Origin: Eledone cirrhosa
Lineage: Eukaryota
DNA length: 64,000 nt
Direction of reading: 5' to 3'
Assembly (NCBI GenBank): GCA_964016885.1
Contig: CAXHJY010001589.1
Location: forward strand, 6,862-70,861
This document shows positions 17,901-61,957 of this stretch, piece by piece. The position numbers and the translations under genes are program-made. The notes beneath the pieces are model-generated. The model saw nothing but the letters and a program-made list of their open reading frames with translations, ran no database searches and was not told the origin of the DNA. How positions within the stretch are numbered: position 1 is the first letter of the stretch; every line of letters starts with the position of its first letter.

Positions 17901-18622
17901 GTATGGCATAAATTCAGGCTGTTCAGTTTGTTTACAAACGAACAAAGCGACGTTAGCGCCGCTAAACTGATACGTGCATATATGTATGTGTACCTGTATG
18001 CATATGTATGTATATATGTATATATATATATATATGTGCATGCTACTGTACGTCTGTATACATATATGTATGTACGTATACATGCATACTTACATTTAAG
18101 TAAGTGCCATACTAAGAGTGAGAAATGAAATTTCGTTTTCATTTTGTTTCAATTTATCGTTTTCGGTATGCCTGACCGATTTAACTCACTCAATATGCAA
18201 ATTAGGCTGCTCAGCCGTTAATTTTCATAAGGAAAGTATATACTTTCGAACGTTCAACTATCTGGCAGATGGGTAAACGGTGCTGATGATAGCTAACAAG
18301 CTTGAAACTAGTACATCGTTCCTGTGTCAGTGTTGAACAAAAAGGTGACGTGGTTGCCTTAACACCGTATGGCATAAATTCAGGCTGTTCAGTTTGTTTA
18401 CAAACGAATAAAGCGACGTTAGCGCCGCTAAACTGATACGTGCATATATGTATGTGTACCTGTATGCATATGTATGTATATATGTATATATATATATATA
18501 TGTGCATGCTACTGTACGTCTGTATACATATATGTATGTACGTATACATGCATACTTACATTTAAGTAAGTGCCATACTAAGAGTGAGAAATGAAATTTC
18601 GTTTTCATTTTGTTTCAATTTA

Positions 18623-18623
<1 letters not shown>
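14935..18623. mobile_element. Retrozyme-like family A: one inverted monomer (14935-15419) fused to ~6.9 tandem 466-bp monomers (15420-18623), each with an HHR
   Basis: Unit starts at 15420, 15886, 16352, 16820, 17286, 17752, 18218; copies essentially identical; no credible ORF; flanked by (TA)n. Confidence 0.88.
15478..15522 (+). ncRNA. Minimal type I hammerhead ribozyme (first of 7 in the array; an eighth lies on the minus strand at ~15175-15219)
   Basis: AACGGTG-CTGATGA-TAGCT-AACA-AGCTT-GAAA-CTAG-TA-CATCGTT; palindromic loop III CTAG; U-U at base of stem II. Confidence 0.85.
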
Positions 18624-22993: not shown

Positions 22994-23144
22994 TGTATAT
23001 ATATGTATATATATATATATGTATATATACAATTAAGTTAAAAAAATACATCTACATACTGAAATACATATGTAACCGGTTTTTAGATTCATACTGGTTT
23101 TTGAGGGAACACCTTCCCTCTATTCTCCAGAAAGCCAGACAAGG

Positions 23145-23189
23145 AATATTGAACTAGTTTCGTTGTTGTTACAACTCATCAGCAATATT
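23145..23189 (-). ncRNA. Minimal type I hammerhead ribozyme
   Basis: AATATTG-CTGATGA-GTTGT-AACA-ACAAC-GAAA-CTAG-TT-CAATATT; canonical core with perfect stems. Confidence 0.92.
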
Positions 23190-23610
23190 TACCTATCTAC
23201 CGGCCTTTCTGGAGAATTGTAAAAGCACATATTGTTATATGCTTTTTCTATGAAAATTAGTAGTGGGCAGACTAATTTGCATAGAGTGTGAGTACGCACC
23301 GGTTCAGCGGAGACGATAAAAACAAATAACGAAACGAAATTAAATTTCGTTTCGTTTGTAACTCACTTTTGTATGACTGACGCTTAAACAATTAAGTTAA
23401 AAAAATACATCTACATATGCATACTGAAATACTAGTGTGTATATGAATACACACACGTATACATATGTATATGTAACAAGTCTTTCACTGGTTGCTTTAC
23501 TGTGAGCACCCAGCTATTCTGTATGTAAACACACAGACAAACCGGTTTTTAGAGTCATACTGGTTTTTGAGGGAACACCTTCCCTCTATTCTCCAGAAAG
23601 CCAGACAAGG

Positions 23611-23655
23611 AATATTGAACTAGTTTCGTTGTTGTTACAACTCATCAGCAATATT
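23611..23655 (-). ncRNA. Minimal type I hammerhead ribozyme
   Basis: Identical to 23145-23189. Confidence 0.92.
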
Positions 23656-24043
23656 TACCTATCTACCGGCCTTTCTGGAGAATTGTAAAAGCACATATAG
23701 TTATATGCTTTTTCTATGAAAATTAGTAGTGGGCAGACTAATTTGCATAGAGTGTGAGTACGCACCGGTTCAGCGGAGACGATAAAAACAAATAACGAAA
23801 CGAAATTAAATTTCGTTTCGTTTGTAACTCACTTTTGTATGACTGACGCTTAAACAATTAAGTTAAAAAAATACATCTACATATGCATACTGAAATACTA
23901 GTGTGTATATGAATACACACACGTATACATATGTATATGTAACAAGTCTTTCACTGGTTGCTTTACTGTGAGCACCCAGCTATTCTGTATGTAAACACAC
24001 AGACAAACCGGTTTTTAGAGTCATACTCGTTTTTGAGTCATAC

Positions 24044-26928: not shown

Positions 26929-29723
<2,795 letters not shown>

Positions 29724-30025
29724 TGGTTATACTTTGGGAGGGTCATGTTTCCAATAAGAAACACACGCACCAGTAGCATTCACTTCAATTTATTATATAT
29801 TTATAAATTTATGAATTTACAAATCTACAAATTTATAAATTTCTGGTTGGTTGGTTGGTTCCACAACCAGATAGTTGTTTATATATAGTCATAGTCCTTG
29901 GTTGTGGAACCAACCAACCAACCAACCAGAAATTTATAAATTTGTAGATTTGTAAATTTATAAATTTATAAATATATAATAAATTGAAGTGAAAGCAACT
30001 GGTGTGTGTGTTTCTTATTGGCAAC

Positions 30026-33000
30026 AGGACCCTCCCAAAGTATAACAATATCCGTTTCAACACACGATTTCAGATAAAGAATCTTACTAAACAAATTCAG
30101 AAACGAAATATCGTAAGCCTTAGCCAGGCTAACAAGATACTGAAAACCACCATGTTCTGTTGTCTACGAAAAAGCATAACATCTCGACAACTATACTTCA
30201 TAAAGCTGTGTTCCTCGTCCAGAATCTACACCAACACCATCAATACTAACGTTAGAAGATTACAACTCACCAAAAAACAAGCAGATAGGCTAAAACGAAC
30301 ATTAATTCTAAACATAAAAAAGAAAATCTATAGAGAATTAAGTCATCAAGAAAAACAAAAGCGTAACCTAATACAAGAAATAGCTAGGATCACCACACCA
30401 AGAGAGAAACTAATATTTATAAGCCTTATACGCCCTGAAGAACAGTACATTACTCAAGAATGTGATAAGCACTTTAAGAGGAAACTAAAGTGGCTTAAAA
30501 AGGCAAAGCTAAATCAGGATACTATAGAGTATACCAATAGATATCCCGACAAAATTGACGGTATCAACATGGCCGACACCTCATTATCAGAAGAGTTCAA
30601 CAACAAAAAACACCAACATATATGGGAACGCAAAAATACATAATGATGAAATGTCTGTGTTATGTTTGCCGCCGAAATTTGAGACATTCAAGAAGGTAAA
30701 TATGATTAGTTGTCTGTCAGAAATAGAAAATTCATTTACAAAACTACGCTGGAGCATCAAAAACAAAAGCAACAATATACGCACACACATATACAACACA
30801 CATCCCAACAACAACAGACACACAGACACAAACAACAATAACAACAACACACACATCAACATCAACAATAACAACATACCCAGAAACAACAACAACAGAC
30901 ACGCAGACACAAACAACAATAACAACACACACAACAACGATAACACACACGGAGACAACAACAACACACATCAACAACAGCACACATCAACAACAACAAC
31001 ACACACGCATTCAATGCCTCTCACCACCACCACAATCTTAACAAACACACAGACACAGAAAACAAGTAATGACAGTAGCACAGAAATCACAGAAATAAGG
31101 GAAAGTAATAGGATTAAAAGGAGAAGGGAGACTAAGGACAAAGAGAATAACCAAGACGAACACACAGACACACAAAATAGGGTAGATAACAACATTGAGC
31201 CAGTGGAAAGAGACAGGAGTAATTATGAGAGACATAGAAACAACCATGATGCTGTTGGTGGAAATAGAAATAGAAACTACACAACTAACAATAACAATAG
31301 CACTAGTACACATAAAGCAGCAGCCTGGAACTCTCCGTTTTATAATCCCTCCGATAAATCATTCGACCTGCGACGAGTCCACGCCACGACTTTACCATTT
31401 AACAAACGCACGCAGTTGCCGTCGCAAGTCGATGAACAAACAGAAGCACAATTTAGTATAGCTAGATCCGAACTTAGAAATATTATAGAACAGTATAGCA
31501 AGAAGCATAATAGAATGGAGGCCCAGCAACTGGGAGAAAAATCTGCAAATGGCTTGCGTAAGCTCATGCAGCGCTCACGTAATGGAGAGATAGCATGCTT
31601 TCCAACAGACAAGTCTGGCAGAATGTCGGTTGACAGCCTGCCAAACTACATCCAGGCAATGCAACCCCACATCACTAACACAAGAGAGGTAACACCACAG
31701 GAGCATGAGGATAGAGAAAAAGCCCTCAATGCCCATATGGTGATGTGGACGAATATAATGCAGCCCAACAAAAGGACTGCCAACAACTTCCAGGCCTAGA
31801 ACAATGACGTGCCGGCGTTGTATGGGCTTCGAAAAGACCATAAAACGGGCTGTGACCCTGTCGCGGGACCACCAGCACGGCCAATCTGTGGAGCTAACAT
31901 TGCTAGTAACTACAGACTGTCCTATTTCCTCTCCCTGATTCATACGCCCCATCATTGAGATGTCCCCAGATGTATGTGACAGCACGGAGGACCTCCTCAG
32001 CGGAATCGGCGTGAGTAACCGATCTGGGGACCTAACAAACTGCATAATAGGCAGTATGGATGTTGTGTCCCTGTATCCATCTATTGACGTGGATTTTGCT
32101 GTGGAGAAATGCGTAGAAATGATCAGCGAGAGCAAGGTTGAGTTCCGTGGGATTGATACCAGTGAGCTGGGACTTCTACTTAAGCTTACCCATAGTAATA
32201 GTTACCTAGACACATATGACCTTAGCAACCTGTGCCCTACAAGACCAGCAAGAGGCAGACCACCTACCATTACCTCAACGGCCAAGAAAACCCACACAGA
32301 AAGATCGAACGGGTGGACCAGAGCCATACGGACACCCGAAAACCACGATGAACTGAAGAAAATGATTGCACATGCGGTAGGGGCCAGCATAAAATTAACC
32401 CTTAAGGAACATATGTTCAAATTTAATGGAAAAACATATGCCCAAGAGGAAGGAGCAGCCATTGGTGTTAGCATTGCAGGCGACATAGCTAACTTATTCA
32501 TGGTATGGTGGGACAGTAGACTTAAACTTAAACTTAAAGAACAATTAGAAGACAGCTTAACCCTGATAATGTACTCCCGCCACGTAGATGATATAAACAT
32601 CGTAATTAAGACACCCCCACTAGAGAACAGTCAGGAACTAGAGAAAAACACAATGGAAAGCATCCAGCAAATAGCAAACTCCATCCACCAGAGCATTAGA
32701 GTTACTATAGACTACCCAAGTAGACATCCCAACCATCGATTACCTGTACTAGACACAGAGCTCTGGTTAGATACGATTAATAACCAAAAACAAATCCTCC
32801 ATTCCCATTATGCCAAACCCATGACTTCCAAACATCTGATCCACCGAAACTCGGCCATTTCGGACCATACCAAAATCAACATACTGATTGCGGATTTGGT
32901 ACGGGTGATGAGAAATGTGTCCCGCATGTGCAACCCCGAAGAACTAGAGAGACACATACAACACTTCATCCACCTCCACCGTATGCAGTTCTCTGGCTAC

Positions 33001-33760
33001 AATCAGAGAGATAGAATCAGAGTGTATAGAGGAGCCAGAACCAAATGGGAAAAAATGGTAAATAATGACATAAATGGGACCTGCCCCTTGTATAGGAGCA
33101 AATTTTGGAATAGAATAGAAAGAACTAGGAACAAGGCCAATAGAATAAACTCATGGTATGATAGCAATAAATACCAGAGTGTAATGTTCATCGATACAAC
33201 CCCTAGAGGCGAACTAGCCTACACATTTAGAAGGGCCCTAAATAAACATAAACTCAATATTAAGATAGTAGAAAGACCAGGTACCTCCGTAAAAACACTT
33301 ATTAGCAAGACATACCCGTTCCAAAGACCCTCATGTATAGATAAGAAATGTATAACCTGTAAAATAAGCCCCCATATTAACTGTAAAACTGGAAATGTAG
33401 TGTATAGCATAAGATGTACTGAAGGACAATGTAGAAACAAAAATATAGTGTACATAGGTGAGACAGCTCGTAGTATAGGGGAACGGATAAATGAACACTG
33501 GCGAGACCTTCAAGATAATAAAGAATCATCTGTACTCTACCAACATGCTAAGATAGAACACAAGGGTAAATTAGAGAACAGAAATAAAAATAGAATCTAC
33601 ACACAGAAAAGACGCAATGTTTAGACAAATTACAGAGGCAATAAACATAAAAGAATTACAACCAAAATTAAATAGAAAATATGAGTGGAACAGCAACATC
33701 ACAAATTACAATAAAGGACAAAATGAAAACACACACACACATAAAACAAACAACCAACCA
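30026..33760 (+). pseudogene. PLE RT-GIY-YIG ORF, unit 1, disrupted
   Basis: Start ATG>AGG, frameshift ~30605, TAG 31797-31799, frameshift ~31941, YVDD>HVDD, frameshift ~33578; motifs [55 protein letters not shown]. Confidence 0.9.
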
Positions 33761-33917
33761 ATAACATGTAAATAAATAAACAAATAGATAAATGAACACA
33801 AACACACAGACACCCGGATGTGGCGCATGCGCAAACTGAGCACACAACACACACACAGAAACAAGATGTCGTAGGACAGAAGAAAGGAAAGGCACAGAAA
33901 CAAAGAAAGGAATCCCC

Positions 33918-33962
33918 AGTCACTGAAGAGGTCACAGAGTGTGTGACGAAAGGACTATGACT
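33918..33962 (+). ncRNA. Minimal type I hammerhead ribozyme (PLE pLTR)
   Basis: AGTCA-CTGAAGA-G-GTCACA-GAGTG-TGTGAC-GAAA-GGAC-TA-TGACT. Confidence 0.82.
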
Positions 33963-34102
33963 ATATATAAACAACTATCTGGTTTTGGAACCAACCAACC
34001 AACCAGAAATTTATAAATTTGTAGATTTGTAAATTTATAAATTTATAAATATATAATAAATTGAAGTGAAAGCAACTGGTGCGTGTGTTTCTTATTGGCA
34101 AC

Positions 34103-37100
34103 ATGACCCTCCCAAAGTATAACAATATCGGTTTCAACACACGATTTCAGATAAAGAATCTTGCTAAACAAATTCAGAAACGAAATATCGTAAGCCTTAG
34201 CCAGGCTAACAAGATACTGAAAACCACCATGTTCTGTTGTTTACGAAAAACCATAACATCTCGACAACTATACTTCATAAAGCAGTGTGCCTCGTCCAGA
34301 ATCTACACCAACACCATCAATACCGACGTTAGAAGATTACAACTCACCAAAAAACAAGCAGATAGGCTAAAACGAACATTAATTCTAAACATAAAAAAGA
34401 AGATCTATAGAGAATTAAGTCATCAAGAAAAACAAAAGCGTAACCTAATACAAGAAATAGCTAGGATCACCACACCAAGAGAGAAACTAATATTTATAAG
34501 CCTTATACGCCCTGAAGAACAGTACATTACTCAAGAATGTGATAAGCACTTTAAGAGGAAACTAAAGTGGCTTAAACAGGCAAAGCTAAATCAGGATACT
34601 ATAGAGTATACCAATAGATATCCCGACAAAATTGACGGTATCAACATGGCCGACACCTCATTATCAGAAGAGTTCAACAACAAAAACACCAACATATATG
34701 GGAACGCAAAAATACATAATGATGAAATGTCTGTGTTATGTTTGCCGCCGAAATTTGAGACATTCAAGAAGGTAAATATGATTAGTTGTCTGTCAGAAAT
34801 AGAAAATTCATTTACAAAACTACGCTGGAGCATCAAAAACAAAAGCAACAATATACGCACACACATATACAACACACATCCCAACAACAACAGACACACA
34901 GACACAAACAACAATAACAACAACACACACATCAACAACAACAATAACAACATACCCAGAAACAACAACAACAGACACGCAGACACAAACAACAATAACA
35001 ACACACACAACAACGATAACACACACGGAGACAACAACAACACACATCAACAACAGCACACATCAACAACAACAACACACACGCATTCAATGCCTCTCAC
35101 CACCACCACAATCTTAACAAACACACAGACACAGAAAACAAGTAATGACAGTAGCACAGAAATCACAGAAATAAGGGAAAATAATAGGATTAAAAGGAGA
35201 AGGGAGACTAAGGACAAAGAGAATAACCAAGACGAACACACAGACACACAAAATAGGGTAGATAACAACATTGAGCCAGTGGAAAGAGACAGGAGTAATT
35301 ATGAGAGACATAGAAACAACCATGATGCTGTTGGTGGAAATAGAAATAGAAACAACACAACTAACAATAACAATAGCACTAGTACACATAAAGCAGCAGC
35401 CTGGAACTCTCCGTTTATAATCCCTCCGATATATCATTCGACCTGCGACGAGTCCACGCCACGACTTTACCATTTAACAAACGCACGCAGTTGCCGTCGC
35501 AGGTCGATGAACAAACAGAAGCACAATTTAGTATAGCTAGATCCGAACTTAGAAATATTATAGAACAGTATAGCAAGAAGCATAATAGAATGGAGGCCCA
35601 GCAACAGGGAGAAAAATCTGCAAATGGCTTGCGTAAGCTCATACAGCGCTCACGTAATGGAGAGATAGCATGCTTTCCAACAGACAAGTCTGGCAGAATG
35701 TCGGTTGACAGCCTGCCAAACTACATCCAGGCAATGCAACCCCACATCACTAACACAAGAGAGGTAACACCACAGGAGCATGAGGATAGAGAAAAAGCCC
35801 TCAATGCCCATATGGTGATGTGGACGAATATAATGCAGCCCAACAAAAGGACTGCCAACAACTTCCAGGCCTAGAACAATGACGTGCCGGCGTTGTATGG
35901 GCTTCGAAAAGACCATAAAACGGGCTGTGACCCTGTCGCGGGACCACCAGCACGGCCAATCTGTGGAGCTAACATTGCTAGTAACTACAGACTGTCCTAT
36001 TTCCTCTCCCTGATTCATACGCCCCATCATTGAGATGTCCCCAGATGTATGTGACAGCACGGAGGACCTCCTCAGCAGAATCGGCGTGAGTAACCGATCT
36101 GGGGACCTAACAAACTGCATAATAGGCAGTATGGATGTTGTGTCCCTGTATCCATCTATTGACGTGGATTTTGCTGTGGAGAAATGCGTAGAAATGATCA
36201 GCGAGAGCAAGGTTGAGTTCGGTGGGATTGATACCAGTGAGCTGGGACTTCTACTTAAGCTTACCCATAGTAATAGTTACCTAGACACATATGACCTTAG
36301 CAACCTGTGCCCTACAAGACCAGCAAGAGGCAGACCACCTACCATTACCTCAACGGCCAAGGAAACCCACACAGAAAGATGGAAGGGGTTTACCAGAGCC
36401 ATACGGACACCCGAAAACCACGATGAACTGAAGAAAATGATTGCACATGCGGTAGGGGCCAGCATAAAATTAACCCTTAAGGAACATATGTTCAAATTTA
36501 ATGGAAAAACATATGCCCAAGAGGAAGGAGCAGCCATTGGTGTTAGCATTGCAGGCGACATAGCTAACTTATTCATGGTATGGTGGGACAGTAGACTTAA
36601 ACTTAAACTTAAAGAACAATTAGAAGACAGCTTAACCCTGATAATGTACTCCCGCTACGTAGATGATATAAACATCGTAATTAAGACACCCCCACTAGAG
36701 AACAGTCAGGAACTAGAGAAAAACACAATGGAAAGCATCCAGCAAATAGCAAACTCCATCCACCAGAGCATTAGAGTTACTATAGACTACCCAAGTAGAC
36801 ATCCCAACCATCGATTACCTGTACTAGACACAGAGCTCTGGTTAGATACGATTAATAACCAAAAACAAATCCTCCATTTCCATTATGCCAAACCCATGAC
36901 TTCCAAACATCTGATCCACCGAAACTCGGCCATTTCGGACCATACCAAAATCAACATACTGATTGCGGATTTGGTACGGGTGATGAGAAATGTGTCCCGC
37001 ATGTGCAACCCCGAAGAACTAGAGAGACACATACAACACTTCATCCACCTCCACCGTATGCAGTTCTCTGGCTACAATCAGAGAGATAGAATCAGATTGT

Positions 37101-37840
37101 ATAGAGGAGCCAGAACCAAATGGGAAAAAATGGTAAATAATGACATAAATGGGACCTGCCCCTTGTATAGGAGCAAATTTTGGAATAGAATAGAAAGAAC
37201 TAGGAACAAGGCCAATAGAATAAACTCATGGTATGATAGCAATAAATACCAGAGTGTAATGTTCATCGATATAACCCCTAGAGGCGAACTAGCCTACAAA
37301 TTTAGAAGGGCCCTAAATAAACATAAACTCAATATTAAGATAGTAGAAAGACCAGGTACCTCCGTAAAAACACTTATTAGCAAGACATACCCGTTCCAAA
37401 GACCCTCATGTATAGATAAGAAATGTATAACCTGTAACATAAGCCCCCATATTAACTGTAAAACTGGAAATGTAATGTATAGCATAAGATGTACTGAAGG
37501 ACAATGTAGAAACAAAAATATAGTGTACATAGGTGAGACAGCTCGTAGTATAGGGGATCGGATAAATGAACACTGGCGACACCTTCAACATAATAAAGAA
37601 TCATCTGTACTCTACCAACATGCTAAGATAGAACACAAGGGTAAATTAGAGAACATAGAAATAAAAATAGAATCTACACACAGAAAAGATGCAATGTTTA
37701 GACAAATTACAGAGGCAATAAACATAAAAGAATTACAACCAAAATTAAATAGGAAAAATGATGGAACAGCAACATCACAACTTAAAATTAAGGACAAAAT
37801 GAAAACACACACACACATAAAACAAACAACCAACCAATAA
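34103..37840 (+). pseudogene. PLE RT-GIY-YIG ORF, unit 2, disrupted
   Basis: ATG 34103 (MTLPKYNNI); frameshift ~35415, TAG 35872-35874, frameshift ~36016; intact YVDD and GIY-YIG in 36035-37840. Confidence 0.9.
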
Positions 37841-37991
37841 CATGTAAATAAACAAATAAATAAATGAACATAAACACAGACAGACACCCGGATGTGGCGC
37901 ATGCGCAGACTGTGCACACAACACACACACAGAAACAAAGTGGCGTAGGACAGAAGAAAGGAAAGGCACAGAAACAAAGAAATGAATCCCC

Positions 37992-38036
37992 AGTCACTGA
38001 AGAGGTCACAGAGTGTGTGACGAAAGGACTATGACT
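37992..38036 (+). ncRNA. Minimal type I hammerhead ribozyme (PLE pLTR)
   Basis: Identical to 33918-33962. Confidence 0.82.
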
Positions 38037-38298
38037 ATATTTAAACAACTATCTGGTTGTGGAACCAACCAACCAACCAGAAATTTATAAATTTGTAGAT
38101 TTGTAAATTTATAAATTTATAAATATATAATAAATTGAAGTGAAGGCATGGGGTGCGTGTGTTTCTTATTGGCAACATGACCCTCCCAAAGTATAACAAC
38201 ATCGGTTTCAACACACGATTTCAGATAAAGAATCTTGCTAAATAAATTAAGAAACGAAATATATATATATGCATATATATATATATATATGTATATGC

Positions 38299-38328
<30 letters not shown>

Positions 38329-38329
<1 letters not shown>

Positions 38330-40016
38330 ATATATTTAGAAACACACAGATACATGCGGACACACACATATACATGAATGCATCCGCACCCAACCATGAG
38401 TTAAGGGTGCCAACTTCACCGATGTTGCTCAATGAATGACTGGGACAGACCAATCCGGTTGAACCAGACTGAACCAGTATCAGAGTTAAAAATACATTAT
38501 GAAGAGAGAAGAAACATTTAGATATAATTAGTAATAAAATGTATCATACCTAAACTGCTCCTAGATTCCTCGACTACGTAGTTTCGTGGCATAAACAAAA
38601 ACAATATATCATAAAGATATAGAGTCCTTGCGAGGTCTGCCGACTTATCAAGAGGATACCTCATTTTACTAGTCTCAAGAACGCGTCTCCACAACGTGAG
38701 AAAGAATCCCAAAAGGCGGAGGGGGAGATAGTCACGCGATATAACGGTCGAGAAACAGAGCTAAGCCTCTTATAACCCCGAAGAAAATACCACGGAGGCG
38801 GAGGGGGTATTTATATCGAAGCCGTAGAAGAGGTGGTGAAGGAGGCGAGAAGTATGAGTAATGAAAGCTTTCCAGCAGTCCCCACACTTCAAAGATTGCT
38901 CGACCAGAGGGAGTTATTAACAATATATTTAGAAACACACAGATACATGCGGACACACACATATACATGAATGCATCCGCACCCAACCATGAGTTAAGGG
39001 TGCCAACTTCACCGATGTTGCTCAATGAATGACTGGGACAGACCAATCCGGTTGAACCAGACTGAACCAGTATCAGAGTTAAAAATACATTATGAAGAGA
39101 GAAGAAACATTTAGATATAATTAGTAATAAAATGTATCATACCTAAACTGCTCCTAGATTCCTCGACTACGTAGTTTCGTGGCATAAACAAAAACAATAT
39201 ATCATAAAGATATAGAGTCCTCGCGAGGTCTGCCGACTTATCAAGAGGATACCTCATTTTACTAGTCTCAAGAACGCGTCTCCACAACGTGAGAAAGAAT
39301 CCCAAAAGGCGGAGGGGGAGATAGTCACGCGATATAACGGTCGAGAAACAGCGCTAAGCTTCTTATAACCCCGAAGAAAATACCACGGAGGCGGAGGGGG
39401 TATTTATATCGAAGCCGTAGAAGAGGTGGTGAAGGAGGCGAGAAGTATGAGTAATGAAAGCTTTCCAGCAGTCCCCACACTTCAAAGATTGCTCGACCAG
39501 AGGGAGTTATTAACAATATATTTAGAAACACACAGATACATGCGGACACACACATATACATGAATGCATCCGCACCCAACCATGAGTTAAGGGTGCCAAC
39601 TTCACCGATGTTGCTCAATGAATGACTGGGACAGACCAATCCGGTTGAACCAGACTGAACCAGTATCAGAGTTAAAAATACATTATGAAGAGAGAAGAAA
39701 CATTTAGATATAATTAGTAATAAAATGTATCATACCTAAACTTAGGCTTAGCTCTGTTTCTCGACCGTTATATCGCGTGACTATCTCCCCCTCCGCCTTT
39801 TGGGATTCTTTCTCACGTTGTGGAGACGCGTTCTTGAGACTAGTAAAATGAGGTATCCTCTTGATAAGTCGGCAGACCTCGCAAGGACTCTATATCTTTA
39901 TGATATATTGTTTTTGTTTATGCCACGAAACTACGTAGTCGAGGAATCTAGGAGCAGTTTAGGTATGATACATTTTATTACTAATTATATCTAAATGTTT
40001 CTTCTCTCTTCATAAT

Positions 40017-40020
<4 letters not shown>
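38329..40020. mobile_element. Retrozyme-like family C: ~2.4 tandem 593-bp monomers (38329-39742) fused to an inverted arm (39744-40020)
   Basis: Units start 38329, 38922, 39515; variant HHRs at 38567-38656 (-), 39160-39249 (-), 39856-39945 (+); flanked by (TA)n. Confidence 0.82.
39856..39945 (+). ncRNA. Type I hammerhead variant with U3-A8 core and ~60 nt domain II
   Basis: TCCTC-TTGATAA-GTCGGCA...TGCCAC-GAAA-CTACGTAG-TC-GAGGA; GUC cleavage triplet, palindromic stem III. Confidence 0.75.
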
Positions 40021-41188: not shown

Positions 41189-41798
41189 TGTCAGGTCACC
41201 AGTTGGTGCTACTGGTAACATGTATCCCAGTACAACCTGTCTCATGGTCGGATCGTTGGCGACTAAACTGGCAACCCCACCAATGTTTCTTGGTGAGGAG
41301 GGTGACTTTGGACATCCTGCAGGACTAAAAACAAAACCTGTCAAAGGGCAAAGGGGCTTTTAAGAGTCAATGGCCATCCAAAATCACCGGGAGAGATGAC
41401 CCCTTAGCCTTTGTCAAGGCAGAATTCTAGGAGAAGGAAAACTCTGATATAACACCAGCAACCTTGATGGTATCCAATGATGTTGACTTGTTCTACTTTT
41501 TGGTATATATCATCTTGGTTAAGAGAGTGGGACTGGCTTTGTGCAGTGCCTTTGCTGACTATAAAAGCTTCACGGCACAGACATTGCTTTATATCTGGAG
41601 ATCTCTCTGCACTTGTCGTCACATGGTACCATTGTCCCAGCACTATGTGTCAATAATTGTCACAAGTGTAGTGTTTGTACCAGAGTTTTCAAGTCGCTGG
41701 CTGGACTAAAATGTCACACTCGTTCAGTGCATCGGTAGGGGTTCTCCTACATGGATATAAAGTAGTGGCCGTACTCGAAAACGAGTTGGCAGCCACCA
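41189..41798 (+). mobile_element. Non-coding interspersed element with 3' stem-loop (non-autonomous LINE derivative/SINE-like); 40624-40720 may be its displaced 5' end
   Basis: Second diverged, 5'-truncated copy at 57448-57944 with an identical 3' end (TGGCCGTACTCGAAAACGAGTTGGCAGCCACCA) into (TA)n. Confidence 0.65.
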
Positions 41799-41834
41799 TA
41801 TTTATATATATATATGTATATATATATATGTATG

Positions 41835-41869
<35 letters not shown>

Positions 41870-41870
41870 G

Positions 41871-41904
<34 letters not shown>

Positions 41905-42006
41905 TATGTATATATATATGTATATATATATATATATATGTATGTATATATACATATGTATATATATATGTATGTATATATATATATATGTATGTATATA
42001 TATATG

Positions 42007-42041
<35 letters not shown>

Positions 42042-42071
42042 GTATGTATATATATATATATATATGTATAT

Positions 42072-42654
42072 ATAATTAAGTTAAAAATGTACATCCACAT
42101 ATGTATACTGAAATACTAGTATGCATATGAATACACACACGTATACATATGTAGATGTACCGAGTTTTTCACTGGTCACTTTACTGTGAGTGTCCAGCTA
42201 TTCTGTATGTAAACACACAGACAAACCGGTTTTTAGAGTCATACTGGTTTTTGAGGAAACACCTTTCCTCTATTCTCCAGAAAGCCAGACAAGGAATATT
42301 GAACTAGTTTCGATGTTGTTACATCTCATCAGCAATATTTACCTATCTTCCGGCCTCTCTAGAGAATCGTAAAAGCACATATCGTTATATGCTTTTTCTA
42401 TGAAAATTAGTAGTGGGCAGACTAATTTGCATAGAGCGTGTTTACATACAGAATAGCTGGACACTCACAGTAAAGTGACCAGTGAAAAACTCGGTACATC
42501 TACATATGTATACGTGTGTGTATTCATATGCATACTAGTATTTCAGTATACATATGTGGATGTACATTTTTAACTTAATTGTTTAAGCGTCAGTCATACA
42601 AAAGTGAGTTACAAACGAAACGAAATTTAATTTCGTTTCGTTATTTGTTTTTAT
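42072..42654. mobile_element. Retrozyme-like family B variant: antisense arm (42072-42440, HHR 42295-42339 on minus) fused to a sense arm (42438-42654)
   Basis: Homologous to 23030-24044; inversion junction at GTG microhomology; (TA)n on both sides. Confidence 0.87.
42295..42339 (-). ncRNA. Minimal type I hammerhead ribozyme
   Basis: AATATTG-CTGATGA-GATGT-AACA-ACATC-GAAA-CTAG-TT-CAATATT; compensatory change in stem II versus 23145-23189. Confidence 0.92.
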
Positions 42655-43480
<826 letters not shown>

Positions 43481-45002
43481 ACGCTTTGGCGTACTTGTGT
43501 TTGCTATTCCTAATATTAGGTTTCCTTATGGACATGTTGTGCGAGATGATGTTGTAGCTATGTGTTTTCTTAGGTAGGAACTCAATTTCTATATTATGGC
43601 CGGATCTAGCTAATGCTTGATTATAATATTGTGAGTTTTTGCTAAATATGTTTGCGTCATAGGATAGATTAGAGATTCTATTGGATACCCCCTTAGAGAT
43701 AGAGTTTAATATTGATCTAGGGTGATTAGACTTGGTATCTACGTAAATGATTTTTTCGTTAGGCTTATGGAAAGGTGTATATATTTTTGAGTCTAGGTAT
43801 AGTGTGGAGTCTAGGAAGTTAACATTTTTAGTGTTTTTTGTGCATGGTGATACTAAGGTTAAAGTTTTTGAATGTCTTGTGCAATAGTTTTCTAGTTCTT
43901 TCTATATTTAATTTTCTATAAGTAGAAGTGCATCATCGCGGTACAAACCACCGTTGAGGTAAGGGAGGTCCTTATGGATTTCATTGAGAAGGTATAGGCC
44001 GACCAAATCAGTGACCTGCGCCGAGTCACTAGATCCCACGGTTATGTCGAAGTTGTTGTGTGTATCCTTGCGTGTTCATAGTTGGTCCTCGAAGGTGATT
44101 ATGGTTTTACGGGCCGCAAGGATGACATCAATCTGTGCTCTAGTCAGGTCGCTATTGTTCATGGCCATGATTAGTGCCTTATTTAATAGGATAGGGGAAA
44201 TAGAGGTGTAGTATTAATTGATATCAAATTGAATAAATTTTTTGTCCTTATTATTCTTGATATCTTTGAACCATTCAATAACTTCACCCGTATTTCCCAA
44301 TTGTTTAAGGTGTATCTTGTGTTTAATTTGTGGGATGATTTTATCTAAAATTTTCTTGCTGATAATACCAATGTCGGACTTGTAAGGGCAGATAAGTCTT
44401 ATCGAGGGGTTGCTGATGAAGTCCTTCTTATGATCCTTCAGAGAGAATCTAGGGGATTTTGGGGTGAATGGTTGTGTATGCCTCTGAAGTCCTAGTTTAG
44501 ACACTATATTATATCCCTCTATATTAATATCTTCTAAGTTTTTCAAGGTGGTCTTCTTGTAGCTTTTATGTAGTTCATTATATATAAACTTTCTATAAGT
44601 ATTATAATCTAGGCTGTATATGTTATTAGTTTTATCTGCGTGTACAATAATTTTATTACTAGTTTTGAATCCGTTAATAGAGGTGTTAAGTTTGTTTAAG
44701 AAGGTGCTGCTTCTATTATGGTGCTTATTGTATTTAATGTTCTTAACTAGTTTAACTAGATCATTTTCAAAGAAGTTAAGTAGTGTGTTATGAGGGGGGC
44801 TTTTAAAGGTTTTAAAGCCGAAGGAGTCAAATTTGTTAGTATTATTCACATTGTTAGATCTGTTTCTATCATAATGGAATGTCCTCCATCTCACTCTATT
44901 GATAAATGAATTTACACTGTTGATCAGCAATTTCTCATATGTATTCCTGGATGGTATTGGTATGTTCTTGGTTGACATGGGGAGTTGGTCTTTGATTAGC
45001 AT
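43481..45002 (-). pseudogene. Penelope-like RT ORF (SxKNIPxP N-terminus type), degenerate and 3'-truncated
   Basis: STKNIPIP, RVRW, FGFKT, ADKT, LKDHK, IRLICP, FIQFDI in 44214-45002; continues through stops to GLYRDD (~43932-43949), NFLD and SNHP. Confidence 0.88.
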
Positions 45003-46725
45003 ATTGGTAATATTATATGTCAGCTCAACAATATGGAGCAGTTAATAGTATTAATTATACTATTTATGGTTATGTAAATACGAAAACCTTTTGCAGTTAT
45101 ATATATTTTTATATACAAACCCTAAATAGTGGGAGGAAGTAATATATTACTACCTTATTACCAGTAAGTTAAGTAGCTCAATGTAAAAACATCAGATGAT
45201 TTACAGAGCAGTTATATGAAATATAAGAATCAAAGAACTGTTCAAAACATGTTTATGCTTACAACTGTTTCCTCCAAACCGAGGTTTGGATTCTTCGGAG
45301 CAATTTATTAATGAATGAACACTTATATGACCTCCTTTTCACCCAAGAGACATACAGATACATATGCAAATATTGTGGGTCAACATTCATTACAGCATTT
45401 AGAGTGGCAGTACACACTTAGAGATTACATTCATATTAAAAGATACAATCAAAAATACAGGTTAAAATACATGAAAATAAGCGGTTATATAGTGCAAAGC
45501 TTATGTGTGGCAAGCACGTGCGTCTGTTTCTATAGTGTGGCAGAGAGTTACGTGTAGTAGAAGCACTTAAGTAGATAAACAAGAGTGTTAGGTTGGTTGA
45601 TCTGGTGGCAAATTCTTTATATGATTGTTATAGTCTTTGTGTGGAGAAATAATATAAGCATTAAAATTAGTGCAAGAATTAAAAATATTGGAAATGCACA
45701 GCAAAGGGATGATATGGACTTCATGTACTTCGACATTTTCATAGTCTGGGGAGTGTATTTTTCAGATTATATGCCCCTCACATAATCCACGACAATTCGA
45801 TATTGAGCGTTTGACAATCCAGTTAGAGAATCGTAGTCTGATGTTCTTTAGTTCAATACAGAAGGATGTTACGTTTCGAGAATCGACATTGAAATACTAC
45901 CCGGAAGTGTGTGTGTGGCTAAGGGGAGTTAATGCATGAGGGGAGGTAACTCCGAGGTTTCTATTACTAACTATTGAAATGTGTCTCAAAATAGACCCTA
46001 ACTTCTATGGTTAAGCGCAATTTCTAAAAAATGTCTAAAGCTTAAAGTGTTTTAACTATAGAGTAGTCTATTAGGTAGTGCTGAAGGTGTTCGTATTATT
46101 ATGGTGAATTAACCCCCATCGTAGAGTGCCGCACATGAATATTATAGACGCCGCGCGAGGATTCAAAATTAATGATCTCTGTGGTTGTAGTCTACTCAAA
46201 GGACCAGGCGCGGTGATTGCAGAATCACTTCAACACACAATGATCTCTGGTAAGTTCTGGGTCATCGCTTGCTACATTGGATGTCGAAAGATAATCATCA
46301 CCAGGGCCGACCAGAGGTCAATCCGCAGTCCTCATGACCCCACCCTGACCATCAAATCATCCATATATGTACAACCCGCACGCCAGTTGCAATACATTCA
46401 TTCCCTGCACTCAGCGTACCGGTCATACTGCTCAACAGCGTTACTAGATTAATTCGTTTTTCATCTGTCCAACGAAGGCACTTCCTCCGCACAACACTAA
46501 CAAGACAATCAATTCATGCTTAAATTACCTATAGAGCGGTGTAGTGCATTTCAAGTGGGTGGATGTTGTCACACCTAAAGTAGAGGTGCAAATGGGTATT
46601 CGCCCTGCGAAGGGTTCTAGAGGGATATCGCTGTTTGTGTTATATTAGATCAGTTAGTGTTGGGTATGCGGTATAAGGTGTGCCCCTGGTGTTTGATGCT
46701 AGAGGTGGTGTATTTCATATATTTC
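45003..46725 (-). mobile_element. PLE pLTR and long non-coding region upstream of the RT ORF
   Basis: Contiguous with the RT ORF, contains an HHR, homologous to 984-1404 over 45047-45473; assignment of the distal part is inference. Confidence 0.55.
45256..45302 (-). ncRNA. Type I hammerhead ribozyme, CCGAAGA core variant
   Basis: TGCT-CCGAAGA-A-TCCAAACC-TC-GGTTTGGA-G-GAAA-CAGTTG-TA-AGCA. Confidence 0.68.
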
Positions 46726-47564: not shown

Positions 47565-48439
47565 AAGGCGGGTAAAATTCCCGAGATCCATGGACGAGTT
47601 CTCTCCAGCGGTCTCTGTCCCTCATTATCGCTGCCATATCCTGCATCTCCAACAGACCAGTGTCTGTCCTTAGGGCAGCAACATGTGTTAACCTTGGTCT
47701 TCCGCTTCTAGTGTGTCCATGTAGGGGCTCCCAAAGGAGCACTGAGTGCAATGTCAACTCTGGATGTCGGTGAGCATGTCCAGCCAACCTCAGTCTCCTC
47801 TGTGTCATTTTGAGCTGACTTTTGTGATGCTCCCATACAGCTCTGAGTTTTTCATCCTCAGTGTATACTGATTAATGTTCAGAGCCATCCTCAGCATTCT
47901 CGTGTAGAACCCATCCACCATCTGAGTGAGTCTCTTGGTCAGTGTCCAAGTCTCAGACCCATACAGCAGCACAGACTCCACTACAGCAATGAAGAGGCGG
48001 ATTTTCAGGTCTCTACGAAGGTCCGACTTCCAGACCGATCTCAAGCTGTGACACGCCGCCCAGGCCTTGCTCTTCCTCTCAACCACATCATCTTCCGTAT
48101 TCCCAATCTTTGCTCCCAAATACAGGAAGTCCTCAACCAATTCCAGCGGCTTCCCGCCTACATTAGTGATCCCCTCTGGCTTCTCAACATTCTCTACCAG
48201 ATATTTTGTTTTAGTCTCATTCATTCTCAGCCCCACACTCATCGACACAGTCTCAACCTCCCGCATCAAATCCTCTGCCTCCTTCACTGTATTTGTCACC
48301 AAAACTATGTCGTCGGCAAATTGAGCATCCGATACCTTTTTCGCCCCAACTCTCCTGCTCTGAGCCGGTGCTACAGTAAAGCCAGTGTCCTGGTGTTTCT
48401 CCAGTGCAAGGCGCATACAATAGTCCACTACGATGATAA

Positions 48440-48445
<6 letters not shown>
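47563..48445 (-). pseudogene. RTE-like non-LTR retrotransposon, 5'-truncated RT fragment
   Basis: [52 protein letters not shown]; one frameshift at ~47806; stop codon abuts (TA)n. Confidence 0.88.
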
Positions 48446-48531
<86 letters not shown>

Positions 48532-48541
48532 GTATGTATAT

Positions 48542-50038
48542 ATAAAGGAGGTAGTAGAGCGGAGGCCAAGAACTATAGGCCAGTTTCCCTGACGACGCAT
48601 ATCAGTAAGGTCATGGAGCGAGTCGTCAGAAAGAAACTAATCACTTTCCTCGAAGAAAATGACCGTCTGACTAGCACGCAACATGGCTTCCGCCCAGGAA
48701 GAAGTTGCCTTACACAGCTGCTACATCACTACGACTGGGTACTGAGACAACTACTAGACAGCTCACATGTGGACGTGATATATCTTGACTTTGCGAAGGC
48801 CTTTGACAAGGTCGACCACGGAATGATATGTCACACACTACACGGACTAGGCATAATTGGAAAAGTAGGTGAGTGGCTGCATGGCTTCCTAACGGACAGA
48901 AGCCAGGCAGTCGCAGTAAATGGGGCCCTCTCGAAGGAAACACCGATAACAAGTGGGGTGCCCCAGGGGACAGTCCTGGGACCACTACTGTTTTTGGTGG
49001 CTCTCTCGGACATGCCCTCTGTGGTGCATGCAACAACATCTCTCACTAGCTATGCTGATGACACTAAGGTAGCACAGGCAATCAAAAACCCGGCTGACGC
49101 TGCTCTTTTACAGCAGAATCTGGATGCCATATACAGATGGGCGGAAGAAAACAACATGCAGTTTAATGTTGGCAAATTCCAAGCCCTACAATACAAACCT
49201 ACAAACACAAATATAGTGGAACACAGCTACACAGGACCAGGAGGGACCGATATCCCCGTGTCAAAATCGATACGAGACCTGGGCATAGACATGAGCGATG
49301 ATGCATCTTTTTCTTCACACATCATGAAGGTGGCGACAACATGTAGACGATTCGCTGGCTGGATCTTGAGGACTTTCCTTACAAGAGATCGACCCACCAT
49401 GTTGACACTGTGGAGGACTTTTGTTCTAAGCCGCCTGGACTACTGCTCCCAGCTGTGGTCACCCCATAGTGTCAAACTAACCACGGAGATTGAGGCAATC
49501 CAGCGAAGCTACACCAAGAGGATTGCCAAGATGAGGGAGACAAGCTACTGGGAGAGGCTAAAGGAACTGAACCTCTACTCCTTGGAGCGAAGACGGGAGA
49601 GATACGCAGTGATCTACATGTGGAAAATCCTGGAGGGACTAGCACCGAACTTTGGCATTGGGAGCTGGACCAACCGTCGAAGAGGACGTCACTGTGTGGT
49701 GCCAAAGATCCCGTCTTCCACATCTAGAATAAGGAGCAGGTATTGCAATAGCCTGGGATTCAAGGGTCCTCAACTCTTCAACAGGCTGCCGAGGCATCTG
49801 AGAGACTTGCATGACGTGGAGGTGGATGTCTTTAAGAAACATCTCGACACCTTGTTATCCAGGATCCCGGATGAGCCCACAGCAAGACACGAGGGAAACC
49901 TAAGGGCAGCAGCAACAAACTCCCTCCTACACCAGTGGCCAACCTATACAGGCTGGAGATAAAACGTGTAGCAACAAGGGCGGTGCACCAGCATGGCCTC
50001 AGCCGGATGGCTGAAACAGGTAAAAGAGTAAAAGAGTA
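48542..50038 (+). mobile_element. CR1-type LINE family B, 5'-truncated copy with open RT frame (to 49962)
   Basis: NYRPVSLT, YLDFAKAFD, GVPQG, YADD, ...TGWR*; same tail as the 20177-22993 copy. Confidence 0.94.
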
Positions 50039-52381: not shown

Positions 52382-52817
52382 TTATTAGTAATAATAATAA
52401 AATTGAAGACTAAAACCCAAAGAGGGCTGGATAAGGAAAATGTATATCAAATATATAAGAACCGTAGAGCAAATATTTATTAAAATAGCAGATTAAAGTT
52501 TAAGCAAAGAATCGCTGCTTTCACCCTTAACGGGATCTTCTGAAACTAACAAAGTCAATCTGTAAACGCAGAACTGGATATTTCAAAAAACGTTGCAACC
52601 GGAGGAAGACAGGAAGACGATACTTTGGTTCGTGGTAACGTTCGCTGGCAAAGAACGGGAAAAAACGAATAATACGTCATTAATAGGAGCGGTGAAAAAC
52701 AATTACGCGCAAAGACAAAACCACGTTTATGGTATAAAAGAGGTCGTAGACTAATGTTCTCTTAGGTGGTTCTCTGACAATGAACGGAAAAACGAAGATA
52801 ATAAGTCATATGTGGAG

Positions 52818-53303
52818 CGTGGAGAACAATTACCTAGCCGTAGGAACACGTGCAACCCTGTAGTTAGTACTAACTGTAATTGTAGGAATCGGGCTGATTG
52901 CCCCCTATCCGGGAAATGCCTCTCTAGTAACATTGTCTACAAATGTAAGGTTGTAACACCCACGTCCCGTAGCGCCTACATAGGGTTAACCGCCAATAGT
53001 TTCAAGCAGCGTCTTTACATGCATACCCATTCTTTTCGTTACCCTCTAAGAAGGAATATGACGTCACTTTCAGCTTATATCTGGAGTCTAAAAGACAACC
53101 ACACCCAATATAAGTTACACTGGGAGATCCTAGCTAGGGCTAGATCGTATAACGGAAATAAAAGACCATGTGACCTCTGCGCCGCTGAGGCCCTGGAAAT
53201 ACTCTACGCCACAGACCACATCTTAAACAAAAAATCTGAGGCAATTTCGGCTTGTAAACATAATTTGCACAAAACTTTCCTGTATTACAGCCCCACGTTA
53301 TAA
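52818..53303 (+). pseudogene. GIY-YIG endonuclease domain of a PLE, 5'-truncated
   Basis: CNCRNRADCPLSGKC-NIVYKC-AYIGLT-FKQR-H-TSLSAYIW-CDLCAAE-LNKKSE-CKH. Confidence 0.9.
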
Positions 53304-54243
53304 CCTAACGGATAGCACGATCTATACGTGGATATTTTACGTCTTGATGTGGGAGCTAAGTATATGTTTTGTTTATTCCTTTACTTATTTGCATAGGTAA
53401 GTATATATTAGCCGTATGTTGTGTGAAGGTATGTATACCTTCTCGTACGTATATTTGACTGTTATGGCGTATAATTTTTACATATTCTGGTATTTAGAGT
53501 TTGGCTATGTGTATACGGGAGTTTTGCGTCCGCGTGAGTATGCAGGTTCGTATGTATGGTGGGTGTGTGTATATGTGTACTTCTTGTTTTAGTTGACTTA
53601 CGTCTCCGAACATTCGTGTATTTATATGTAGATATGCGTGTGCGCTTGTTATATACGTATTTATTTACTTATATACGTTTATATAATTATTTATTTATTT
53701 GTACACAAGCATACACACACACACATATTTATATGTGCGTGGTTTTGTATACCTATGGTAAGGTTTTGCGTATGCTTGTGTATGTACGTATTTGTTTGCG
53801 TGTATGTATTTATTTGTTTCTATTACTTCTGTATCGTATTTATTTACTTTGTTCTTAACTCTGTAGCGGAGATTCATTTGGTCTCCTAGTTAGAATTTTA
53901 GTTTACGATTTCTGCTATACCATTTACGTGGTTTTGTCTTTGCGTGCTATTGTTCTCCACACTCCACATATGACTTATTATCTTCGTTTTTTCGTTCATT
54001 GCCAGAGAACGTCTCTATGCACCACCTAAGAGAACATTAGTCTACGACCTCTTTTATACCATAAACGTGGTTTTGTCTTTGCGCGTAATTGTTTTTCACC
54101 GCTCAAATTAATGACGTATTATTCGTTTTTTCCCGTTCTTTGCCAGCGAACGTTACCACGAACCAAAGTATCATCTTCCTGTCTTCCTCCGGTTGCAACG
54201 CTTTTTGAAATATCCAGTTCTGCGTTTACAGATTGACTTTGTT

Positions 54244-54294
54244 AGTTTCAGAAGATCCCGTTAAGGGTGAAAGCAGCGATTCTTTGCTTAAACT
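54244..54294 (+). ncRNA. Type I hammerhead-like motif, CAGAAGA core (mirror copy 52497-52547 on minus)
   Basis: AGTTT-CAGAAGA-TCCC-GTTAA-GGGT-GAAA-GCA..TGC-TT-AAACT. Confidence 0.62.
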
Positions 54295-54335
54295 TTAATC
54301 TGTTATTTTAATAAATATATATATATGTATATATA

Positions 54336-54562
54336 TTTCATTATTTCTGAATACGGCATATATATGTGTTGGTATGTATATTTAATTTTGATAGTTTGTA
54401 TAATTTTATATAATTTTGTACATAGATCTGTTGAATATGCATGCCAATTCTAACACATATATATCCTAGAAACGATCGTTAAATAATGAACTTTTTTTGT
54501 TTAATATAAGGAACTGTTTCATTGTTTTATTCATTATTTTTTTAATATTTTTTTTAATATTT
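54336..54562 (+). mobile_element. Family F fragment with HHR-like fold (54339-54488)
   Basis: Shares ATTATTTCTGAA.ACGGC, TACATAGATC and AGAAACGATCGT.AAATAATGA with 63408-63590. Confidence 0.6.
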
Positions 54563-59461: not shown

Positions 59462-59651
59462 TGTTTCTACTTTAGGCACAAGGCCAGCAATTATCCAGTG
59501 CATTACTGGTACTTTATTTTATCGACCCCGTAAGGATGAAAGGCAAAGTATACCTCGGCGGGATTTGAACTCAGAGCGTAAAGGGATGTAACTATGCTGG
59601 AAAGCATGGCGTCCGACCCTCTACCGATACTGCCAATCCACTGCCCCAACC
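59462..59651 (-). mobile_element. tRNA-derived SINE with 16-bp target-site duplication
   Basis: A-box-like TGGCAGTATCGG and B-box-like GAGTTCAAATCCC on minus; GTGGTTGCAGTATAAT at 59446-59461 and 59652-59667. Confidence 0.88.
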
Positions 59652-60706
59652 GTGGTTGCAGTATAATGATCGTTCAACTCTATCGTTAAGTAGTTTGTTT
59701 TTGGATTTTAATATGTAAAAGAGTTCAAGGTTACACAACCTGCAGTATTTCAATCCACTCCGATATGCACTTGCGCTGGAAAGTATATCCCATTTTAAGG
59801 TGAACTGTTGGTTGCGTTCACGGACTTGCCAGGTCTTGTTGGCGAGCGTGGTCACAAAACGGTGATTAAGATGTTTGATTGAGAATCGATGACGGTACCA
59901 GCGAGATTTAAACGAGGTGGTGGTAATCCGATATAATACCATTTCTGGTCGTTCGATTCAACCGTGCATTGGTAAACAATGTTGGACTATAGGCATTCAT
60001 TCTTCAATGGACATCTTTCAGGTAGATGGCAGTTACATTCTTTGTTGTTGGTAGCGGGTACACCATGGATAGGTTGTGATAGCGGTACAGGTGGATTGTG
60101 TAATACCCGTCTCCCATTTAGTGGTTGGGAGGCAGATATTACGTTCTGCCCATCTGTTACTAAAATGTTTTGTTTTGTAGAGTTGTTTAATTGCCTTAAG
60201 TTAAGTTTTTTTTATGTATGCTTCAAGGTTTGGTGCCGTGGAGTATGATAGTCTAATAGTTTTAGAGTTCAGAATTTTGCTGTATTTATGGGAACTAGGG
60301 AAATGTTTGTTGATTAACTTAAAGAATGATAGAGATAGTTTTGTACTAATCGAGGCATTAAAAATAGGATTGTACCAGATATACTTTCTACAACGTGATT
60401 TATTTGGTGGTGATTTTCTATTATTAGTATGTCTGGTACTACTGTGTGTGTGCACTTGTATTTTAGTCCCCCGGTTACGTATTCCTTGATTTCGTGTAGA
60501 GCTATGTGTGTTATGGAAGTTCCTATCAATGTATTCTATTGTATCCCGGTGGTCGGCATTCCTTAATGCATTATTGTAGTATTCAGCGTGTTCACTAAAA
60601 ATAGTGTTAGACGATAGGCGAGAGATTCTAAGAGAAATACTCCGGGGAACTGATTTGATCATGGACAGTGGGTGGTTTGAGTTAAAGTTAATATACGTAA
60701 GGTTCA

Positions 60707-61957
<1,251 letters not shown>

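Follow-up and report, generated by a model that had tools for sequence, protein, structure and literature searches.

A two-armed hammerhead retrozyme in Eledone cirrhosa ends at two fixed internal sites and was most likely inserted by a Penelope-like enzyme

The DNA analyzed is a 64,000-nucleotide stretch of the Eledone cirrhosa genome (GCA_964016885.1, contig CAXHJY010001589.1, positions 6,862 to 70,861 of the forward strand), hereafter called the window. At 42074-42654 it carries a single insertion of a 466-nt hammerhead repeat of subfamily B2, built of two arms that lie head-to-head. The sense strand is defined as that of the hammerhead, and monomer position 1 is the first base 3' of the predicted cut. 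In the sense direction, the left arm (42074..42440, minus strand) runs from monomer position 328 through 466/1 to 228, crossing the predicted ribozyme cut and terminating at a position termed site I, and the right arm (42438..42654, plus strand) runs from position 86 to 302 and terminates at site II. The arms overlap by 3 nt at the inversion point (42438-42440), and monomer positions 86-228 are present in both. Because the arms are head-to-head, both outer ends are 3' ends of the sense strand. The stretch from site I to site II, the tail, is found on one arm only (42581..42654, plus strand, 74 nt) and contains a 14-bp inverted repeat at 42614-42642. The target flanks are (TA)n-type microsatellites at 41798..42073 on the left and 42655..43481 on the right; positions 42072-42073 are part of this target and lie outside the B2 copy. 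Reading frames of at least 120 amino acids across 42074-42654 are microsatellite read-throughs, and the repeat itself has no coding capacity. Terminal direct repeats, as in an LTR structure, are absent.

Two related families, A and B, are present in the window, both with 466-nt monomers in tandem arrays. They can be aligned over the hammerhead and 120 nt upstream of it, with about 67-70% identity. The targets of A and B insertions are (TA)n, so target-site duplications are unreadable. Family B is further represented by a one-armed insertion of subfamily B1 with about two units (23030..24037, minus strand), which has its 3' end at site I and an internal deletion near 23067-23074. Family A is represented by a two-armed insertion (14935..18623) with a minus-sense arm extending to site I at 14935 and a plus-sense array of about seven units extending to site II at 18623. 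Genome-wide, family A yields 10,759 exact pattern matches. Long arrays, of 30 or more units, also exist. The octamer ATGCAAAT (42425..42432, minus strand; near 15862 in the A monomer) is common to both families and is a candidate promoter element. Together with a downstream TAATTTTCATA block, it forms the best-conserved stretch between A and B outside the ribozyme. It may belong to a promoter of the snRNA type, like that of newt satellite 2; the literature searched on the newt octamer yielded one unrelated paper.

A type I hammerhead motif was identified in the B2 copy by sequence (42295..42339, minus strand; Rfam HH9). It comprises a 7-bp stem I, a CUGAUGA core, a 5-bp stem II, and a palindromic 2-bp stem III, and its predicted cut lies between 42302 and 42301. 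The HH9 match at 42279-42350 has an E-value of 1.4e-07 and a score of 36.5 bits, under the gathering score of 52, and at the gathering score no Rfam match to the hammerhead was obtained. Rfam matches of microRNA families to the AU-rich hairpin were rejected as lying far under their gathering scores. A short palindromic stem III and a dimeric fold, of the kind predicted here, are described in PMC4209133, as far as the cited text goes. In some B2 copies GUC replaces GUU at the predicted cut. In family A, stem II (15490-15510) has a U-U opposition where the stem normally closes on the core, and this form is present in 10,759 exact copies; judged from its sequence, the family A ribozyme may have low activity or may require a dimer or a protein.

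The B2 copy differs from the B1 copy at 23030 at 25 of 441 positions. Two compensatory pairs between these copies had been noted in a first-pass annotation, which does not describe the inverted arms; both are real, and the actual total is four fully compensatory pairs. They are located in stem II (42313/42324, corresponding to 23629/23640), in a hairpin at 42254..42269 on the minus strand (42266/42257, corresponding to 23573/23582), and in a small hairpin at 42176..42194 on the minus strand, which holds two pairs (42192/42177 and 42191/42178). Thus 8 of the 25 differences belong to compensatory pairs. A further 6 are one-sided with the pairing kept, mostly via G-U. Of the remainder, 10 fall at unpaired positions of the predicted B1 fold and 1 disrupts a predicted pair. 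When the same substitutions were placed at random 20,000 times, a mean of 9.3 pairs was broken, no run had one or fewer, and four compensatory pairs were reached once. The covariation score of 24 distinct monomers exceeded all 500 shuffles, and the number of pairs with two-sided change in this alignment (7) was not better than in the shuffles (60/500). The compensatory changes are few independent events that were clonally inherited. Exact copies of stem II number 5,217 for the B1 type, 2,607 for the B2 type, and 7,828 for either type or mixed, so that by subtraction just 4 of the 7,828 copies in the genome have a mixed stem II, a linkage that clonal descent yields too. Intermediates between B1 and B2 were seen in L016 and L029, with a G-U pair at hairpin positions 36/45 of alignment A1, in L025, with a mismatch at the same positions, and in L061, where 110/125 and 111/124 show a third combination of paired bases. 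The monomer RNA is highly self-paired (fold z-scores -9.4 and -7.8). In the predicted folds of both A and B, site I comes after an extended AU-rich hairpin, whereas the U-rich sequence around site II is unpaired and directly 3' of a hairpin starting GAAAYGAAAT.

The distribution of insertion ends over the monomer was determined in samples retrieved with a B1 query or by exact patterns, largely within the first 80 Mb of a single contig, with the ends tallied by hand. The first B sets combined 30 of 45 sequences matching a B1 query, for which 40 out of 939 candidates were scored, with 20 clusters among the first 100 B2 matches (2,607 in all). For A, 40 clusters were taken among the first 100 matches (10,759 in all). 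A held-out B sample, drawn after the prediction had been fixed, comprised 18 clusters among the first 100 B1 matches (5,217 in all). The end tallies exclude loci that repeat an insertion already counted, ends at the edges of fetched stretches, and false opposite-strand palindrome segments, as well as L091 (a foreign insertion into the TA tract of A) and L181 and L182 (selected for read-through). Five insertions picked by a wide-gap junction pattern were also omitted because that pattern favors TA junctions and counts reverse matches repeatedly.

Of the 67 ends in the first B sets, site I (227-234) accounted for 35 and site II (300-303) for 31, with 1 elsewhere. In the held-out set 33 of 35 ends were on site and 2 elsewhere, bringing family B to 99 of 102 ends at the two sites. 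Family A gave 69 ends, 26 at site I (approximately 245-252) and 34 at site II (304-310), i.e. 60 on site. The remaining nine comprised six in the internal TA tract of A and three elsewhere. The mapping of termini on the monomer, proposed earlier as a check, therefore shows two sharp peaks in each family. The 5' ends of the sampled insertions are scattered over the monomer without a pile-up at the cut. Ends joined to TA at monomer positions 302, 233, and 228 were also present among the 9 listed of 50 loose ends in contigs from short-read run X1, which may be the same sample as the window; organisms B and C gave 3 and 1 contigs, too few for ends. Three insertions (L183, L129, and L116) are flanked by (CAT)n/(ATG)n rather than (TA)n.

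Sites I and II lie 59-74 nt apart, are homologous between A and B, and are 230-310 nt from the predicted cut. Two conserved sites some 60-75 nt apart and far from the cut had been proposed from the window alone, and this part of the proposal stands, as does the homology of the right ends, where 42654 (B position 302) and 18623 (A position 310) align at TTTAT|CG. The left ends had all been placed just past CTTAAA; this is correct for 14935 and 23030, but the B2 copy begins one base further, at 42074. The idea that AT-richness defines the sites had to be abandoned, since 103-117 positions per monomer equal them in this respect. Alternating T/A runs of at least 3 nt number 22-23 per monomer, and B uses only the one at site II; the runs at the sites are 0-3 nt. 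Priming at the ribozyme cut was rejected, as no sampled 3' end is found there and the arms cross it.

The way in which the two sites are combined within single insertions was then counted. Among the 56 two-armed insertions that have both ends on site, each combines one site I end with one site II end, without exception (24 and 15 in the B sets, 39 in sum, and 17 in A). For the first 41 of these insertions, the chance of this outcome under independence is 4.5e-13. About ten further two-armed insertions (7 A, 3 B) have one off-site end. L182, selected for reading past site II, has ends at 302 and 306 and is a possible II + II exception. The two arms of an insertion agree at nearly all subfamily-diagnostic positions (19 informative of 20 insertions), and of the private variants in 20 two-armed insertions, 25 are common to both arms and 46 are on one arm. 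These common subfamily alleles and rare variants indicate that both arms derive from one template or donor. The overlap of the arms in sequence and their crossing of the cut further indicate a template that was a multimer, a circle, or two RNA copies.

An autonomous-type Penelope-like element (PLE), family C, is located at 29721..38262 on the plus strand as a tandem of about 4,076 bp with broken reverse transcriptase (RT) and C-terminal GIY-YIG frames. Its domain matches (RVT_1, E 3e-4; GIY-YIG, E 2e-4) are just or well under the Pfam cut-offs. The linker between the two domains, read in frame, contains C-x4-C-x2-C. In the cited text of PMC8557442, a linker of the CX2-5CxxC type is a mark of Neptune/Nematis, and by its sequence family C is probably of this type. 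In the window copy the inverted 5' arm ends at +26 from the ATG and the distal end lies at +86. Among 30 of 72 matches, 32 of 34 family C ends are at +25/26 or +86, 60 nt apart, and all five apparent two-armed copies, including that in the window, combine the two sites (L154 and L155 may be duplicates). The family is very abundant, with 53,877 candidates. A hammerhead-like core was noticed near 33923 within the tandem.

Comparison of family C with A and B gave no alignable homology, only short words in common; family C is thus only a candidate helper. A search for a helper with homology to A or B, covering one PLE family and one read-through pattern, found none. A pattern for the B tail followed by foreign sequence had 19 matches, and the two examined were point variants, neither entering a PLE frame. 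Site II of family C falls at TAT|CG, as in A and B, and the word GAAAYGAAAT is present in all three tails. This likeness, noticed post hoc, is a weak hint of the helper at the sequence level.

The repeat corresponds to a known class of elements. Non-LTR retrozymes were defined by Cervera and de la Peña (2020, PMC7229834), who in the cited text name PLEs as likely mobilizers, and a phylogeny supporting a PLE origin is given in the cited part of Li, Clavereau and Pollet (2026, bioRxiv 10.64898/2026.07.22.740005). Like the metazoan elements of these two sources, A and B consist of non-coding tandem monomers of low GC with one type I hammerhead each, have a highly self-paired fold, are present in thousands of copies, and co-occur with PLEs, proposed for the class as mobilizers. 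As a class criterion in the text consulted, target-site duplications are longer than 4 bp when present. Insertion ends, inversions, and tails are unmapped in the cited text, and no study mapping retrozyme ends or counting site pairing was found in a literature search limited to titles and abstract openings, with subscription papers outside its scope. The Xenopus retrozymes have 21 PLE matches in the cited text, whereas here no PLE with a homologous pLTR was found, with family C being the one compared.

The two-site pattern is that of the known PLE tail. According to the cited text of PMC8557442 (Craig et al., 2021), Neptune and Naiad PLEs likewise have an inverted, 5'-truncated copy, a tail often at one end only, a bias for (TA)n targets, and no discernible target duplications. 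They differ in being coding PLEs, with a few non-autonomous Chlamys elements, and in having a tail of 30-40 nt. A biochemical parallel is the Poseidon PLE PAc of the green anole (Frangieh et al. 2024, PMC11167929). In the text cited, the PAc protein cleaves both strands of AT-rich DNA, each target strand is extended, two internal RT starts match the genomic tail ends, ribozyme cleavage is dispensable, and a dimer is predicted. PAc and A/B are alike in having two internal starts that bound the tail, AT-rich targets, and sites downstream of the hammerhead. PAc differs in being autonomous, and its tail of 30-40 nt lies within the ORF, whereas A and B are non-coding with tails of 59-74 nt. The cited text leaves the pairing of sites per insertion uncounted for PAc, in contrast to the 56 of 56 counted for A and B; Fig. 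S2 of that paper concerns genomic ends and bears on the novelty of end counts. It reports no start-site difference between the strands in vitro, so strict one-of-each use is not demonstrated by that system.

L1 twin priming also lets both target strands prime cDNA, leading to 5' inversion. Its first start is at the poly(A) end and its second at a variable internal site, and its arms are not known to overlap. The A and B insertions differ in having overlapping arms and two internal sites that are both fixed.

Based on these comparisons, we consider it probable that 42074-42654 is a non-coding hammerhead non-LTR retrozyme of subfamily B2 with two-site ends, most likely written into TA microsatellites in trans by a Penelope-like, probably Neptune-type, RT-endonuclease. 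Movement by a PLE is the most likely route because the ends match the PLE tail, which is explained in vitro by two internal RT starts. By the same analogy, we infer that sites I and II are starts of reverse transcription, as had been suggested from the window, although the suggestion of a new mechanism falls away before the established PLE tail. The retrozyme RNA would be transcribed, and a PLE protein would bind the folded element around the tail hairpin and cut both strands of the (TA)n target. From each exposed 3' end a cDNA would be primed, with site I as the start of one and site II as that of the other. These cDNAs would stop at variable points and be joined head-to-head over 0-9 nt of microhomology or with a few additional bases. 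Either an uncleaved multimer or a circle would be the template, rather than unit-length cleaved linear RNA.

Alternative origins of the two fixed ends were considered. Rather than points of RNA priming, the sites could be places where the GIY-YIG endonuclease domain of the PLE cuts and resolves a double-stranded DNA intermediate of the element, and a staggered pair of cuts would also yield one end of each kind. Against this stand the exact coincidence of RT starts in vitro with genomic tail ends, given in the cited text of PMC11167929, and the scattered 5' ends and overlapping arms, which are expected of two cDNAs; DNA cutting is therefore an unlikely origin of the ends. Spread as DNA, by segmental duplication or recombination of a few founders whose ends were inherited, has in its favor that arrays of at least 30 units exist and that unequal exchange may lengthen them. 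It has to contend with inversion points and 5' ends that differ in nearly every insertion while the 3' ends are fixed, with flanks that differ past the TA tracts, and with the recurrence of the pattern across B1, B2, A, and family C, a non-homologous PLE, and we regard it as barely credible.

That priming follows chance microhomology of the nicked (TA)n target with whichever part of the RNA is AT-rich is very improbable. At both sites 1-3 nt of T/A microhomology is indeed found, and the six A ends in the internal TA tract agree with it, but the two end peaks contradict it, longer alternating runs in B (4-5 nt) are unused, and 103-117 positions are equally AT-rich. Five of the six A tract ends moreover occur in two-armed copies with the other end on site, and we infer that they fit a later deletion between the internal and the flanking TA tracts.

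Priming by a PLE protein in trans thus remains the preferred reading. The additions to the cited text are the quantitative one-of-each rule, a tail of 59-74 nt like that of a coding PLE in the same genome, and strong conservation of structure. A more far-reaching version may be put forward tentatively. Retrozymes non-homologous to their helper might keep a structural mimic of the PLE tail, and a dimeric PLE protein might start from the two ends of a single (TA)n break at fixed sites that are necessarily different, both located on one small circular RNA, and copy round it. A two-armed array would then be a fossil of rolling-circle, double-ended reverse transcription. The link between retrozymes and PLEs, earlier argued from ribozymes, co-occurrence, and pLTR similarity, is readable here from insertion ends. 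One-of-each use of two starts is a clear in vivo prediction for tandem and inverted PLE insertions, a step left open in the cited text of PMC11167929, and the 466-nt RNA, for which start sites are mapped and compensatory variants occur naturally, lends itself directly to in vitro work.

Other elements were also observed in the window. A tandem of approximately 593-bp units with an inverted terminal arm lies between TA tracts at 38320-40017; no canonical hammerhead core was seen in it by eye, and it is possibly another retrozyme-like family. LINE-type elements with RT are present at 10401-13535, 20773-22917, and 48424-49962, the first of which also has an AP-endonuclease domain. Fragments of a second PLE-like family are found at 42651-45041, 52755-54560, and 59592-61085, with a hammerhead-like core, seen by eye, near 54250.
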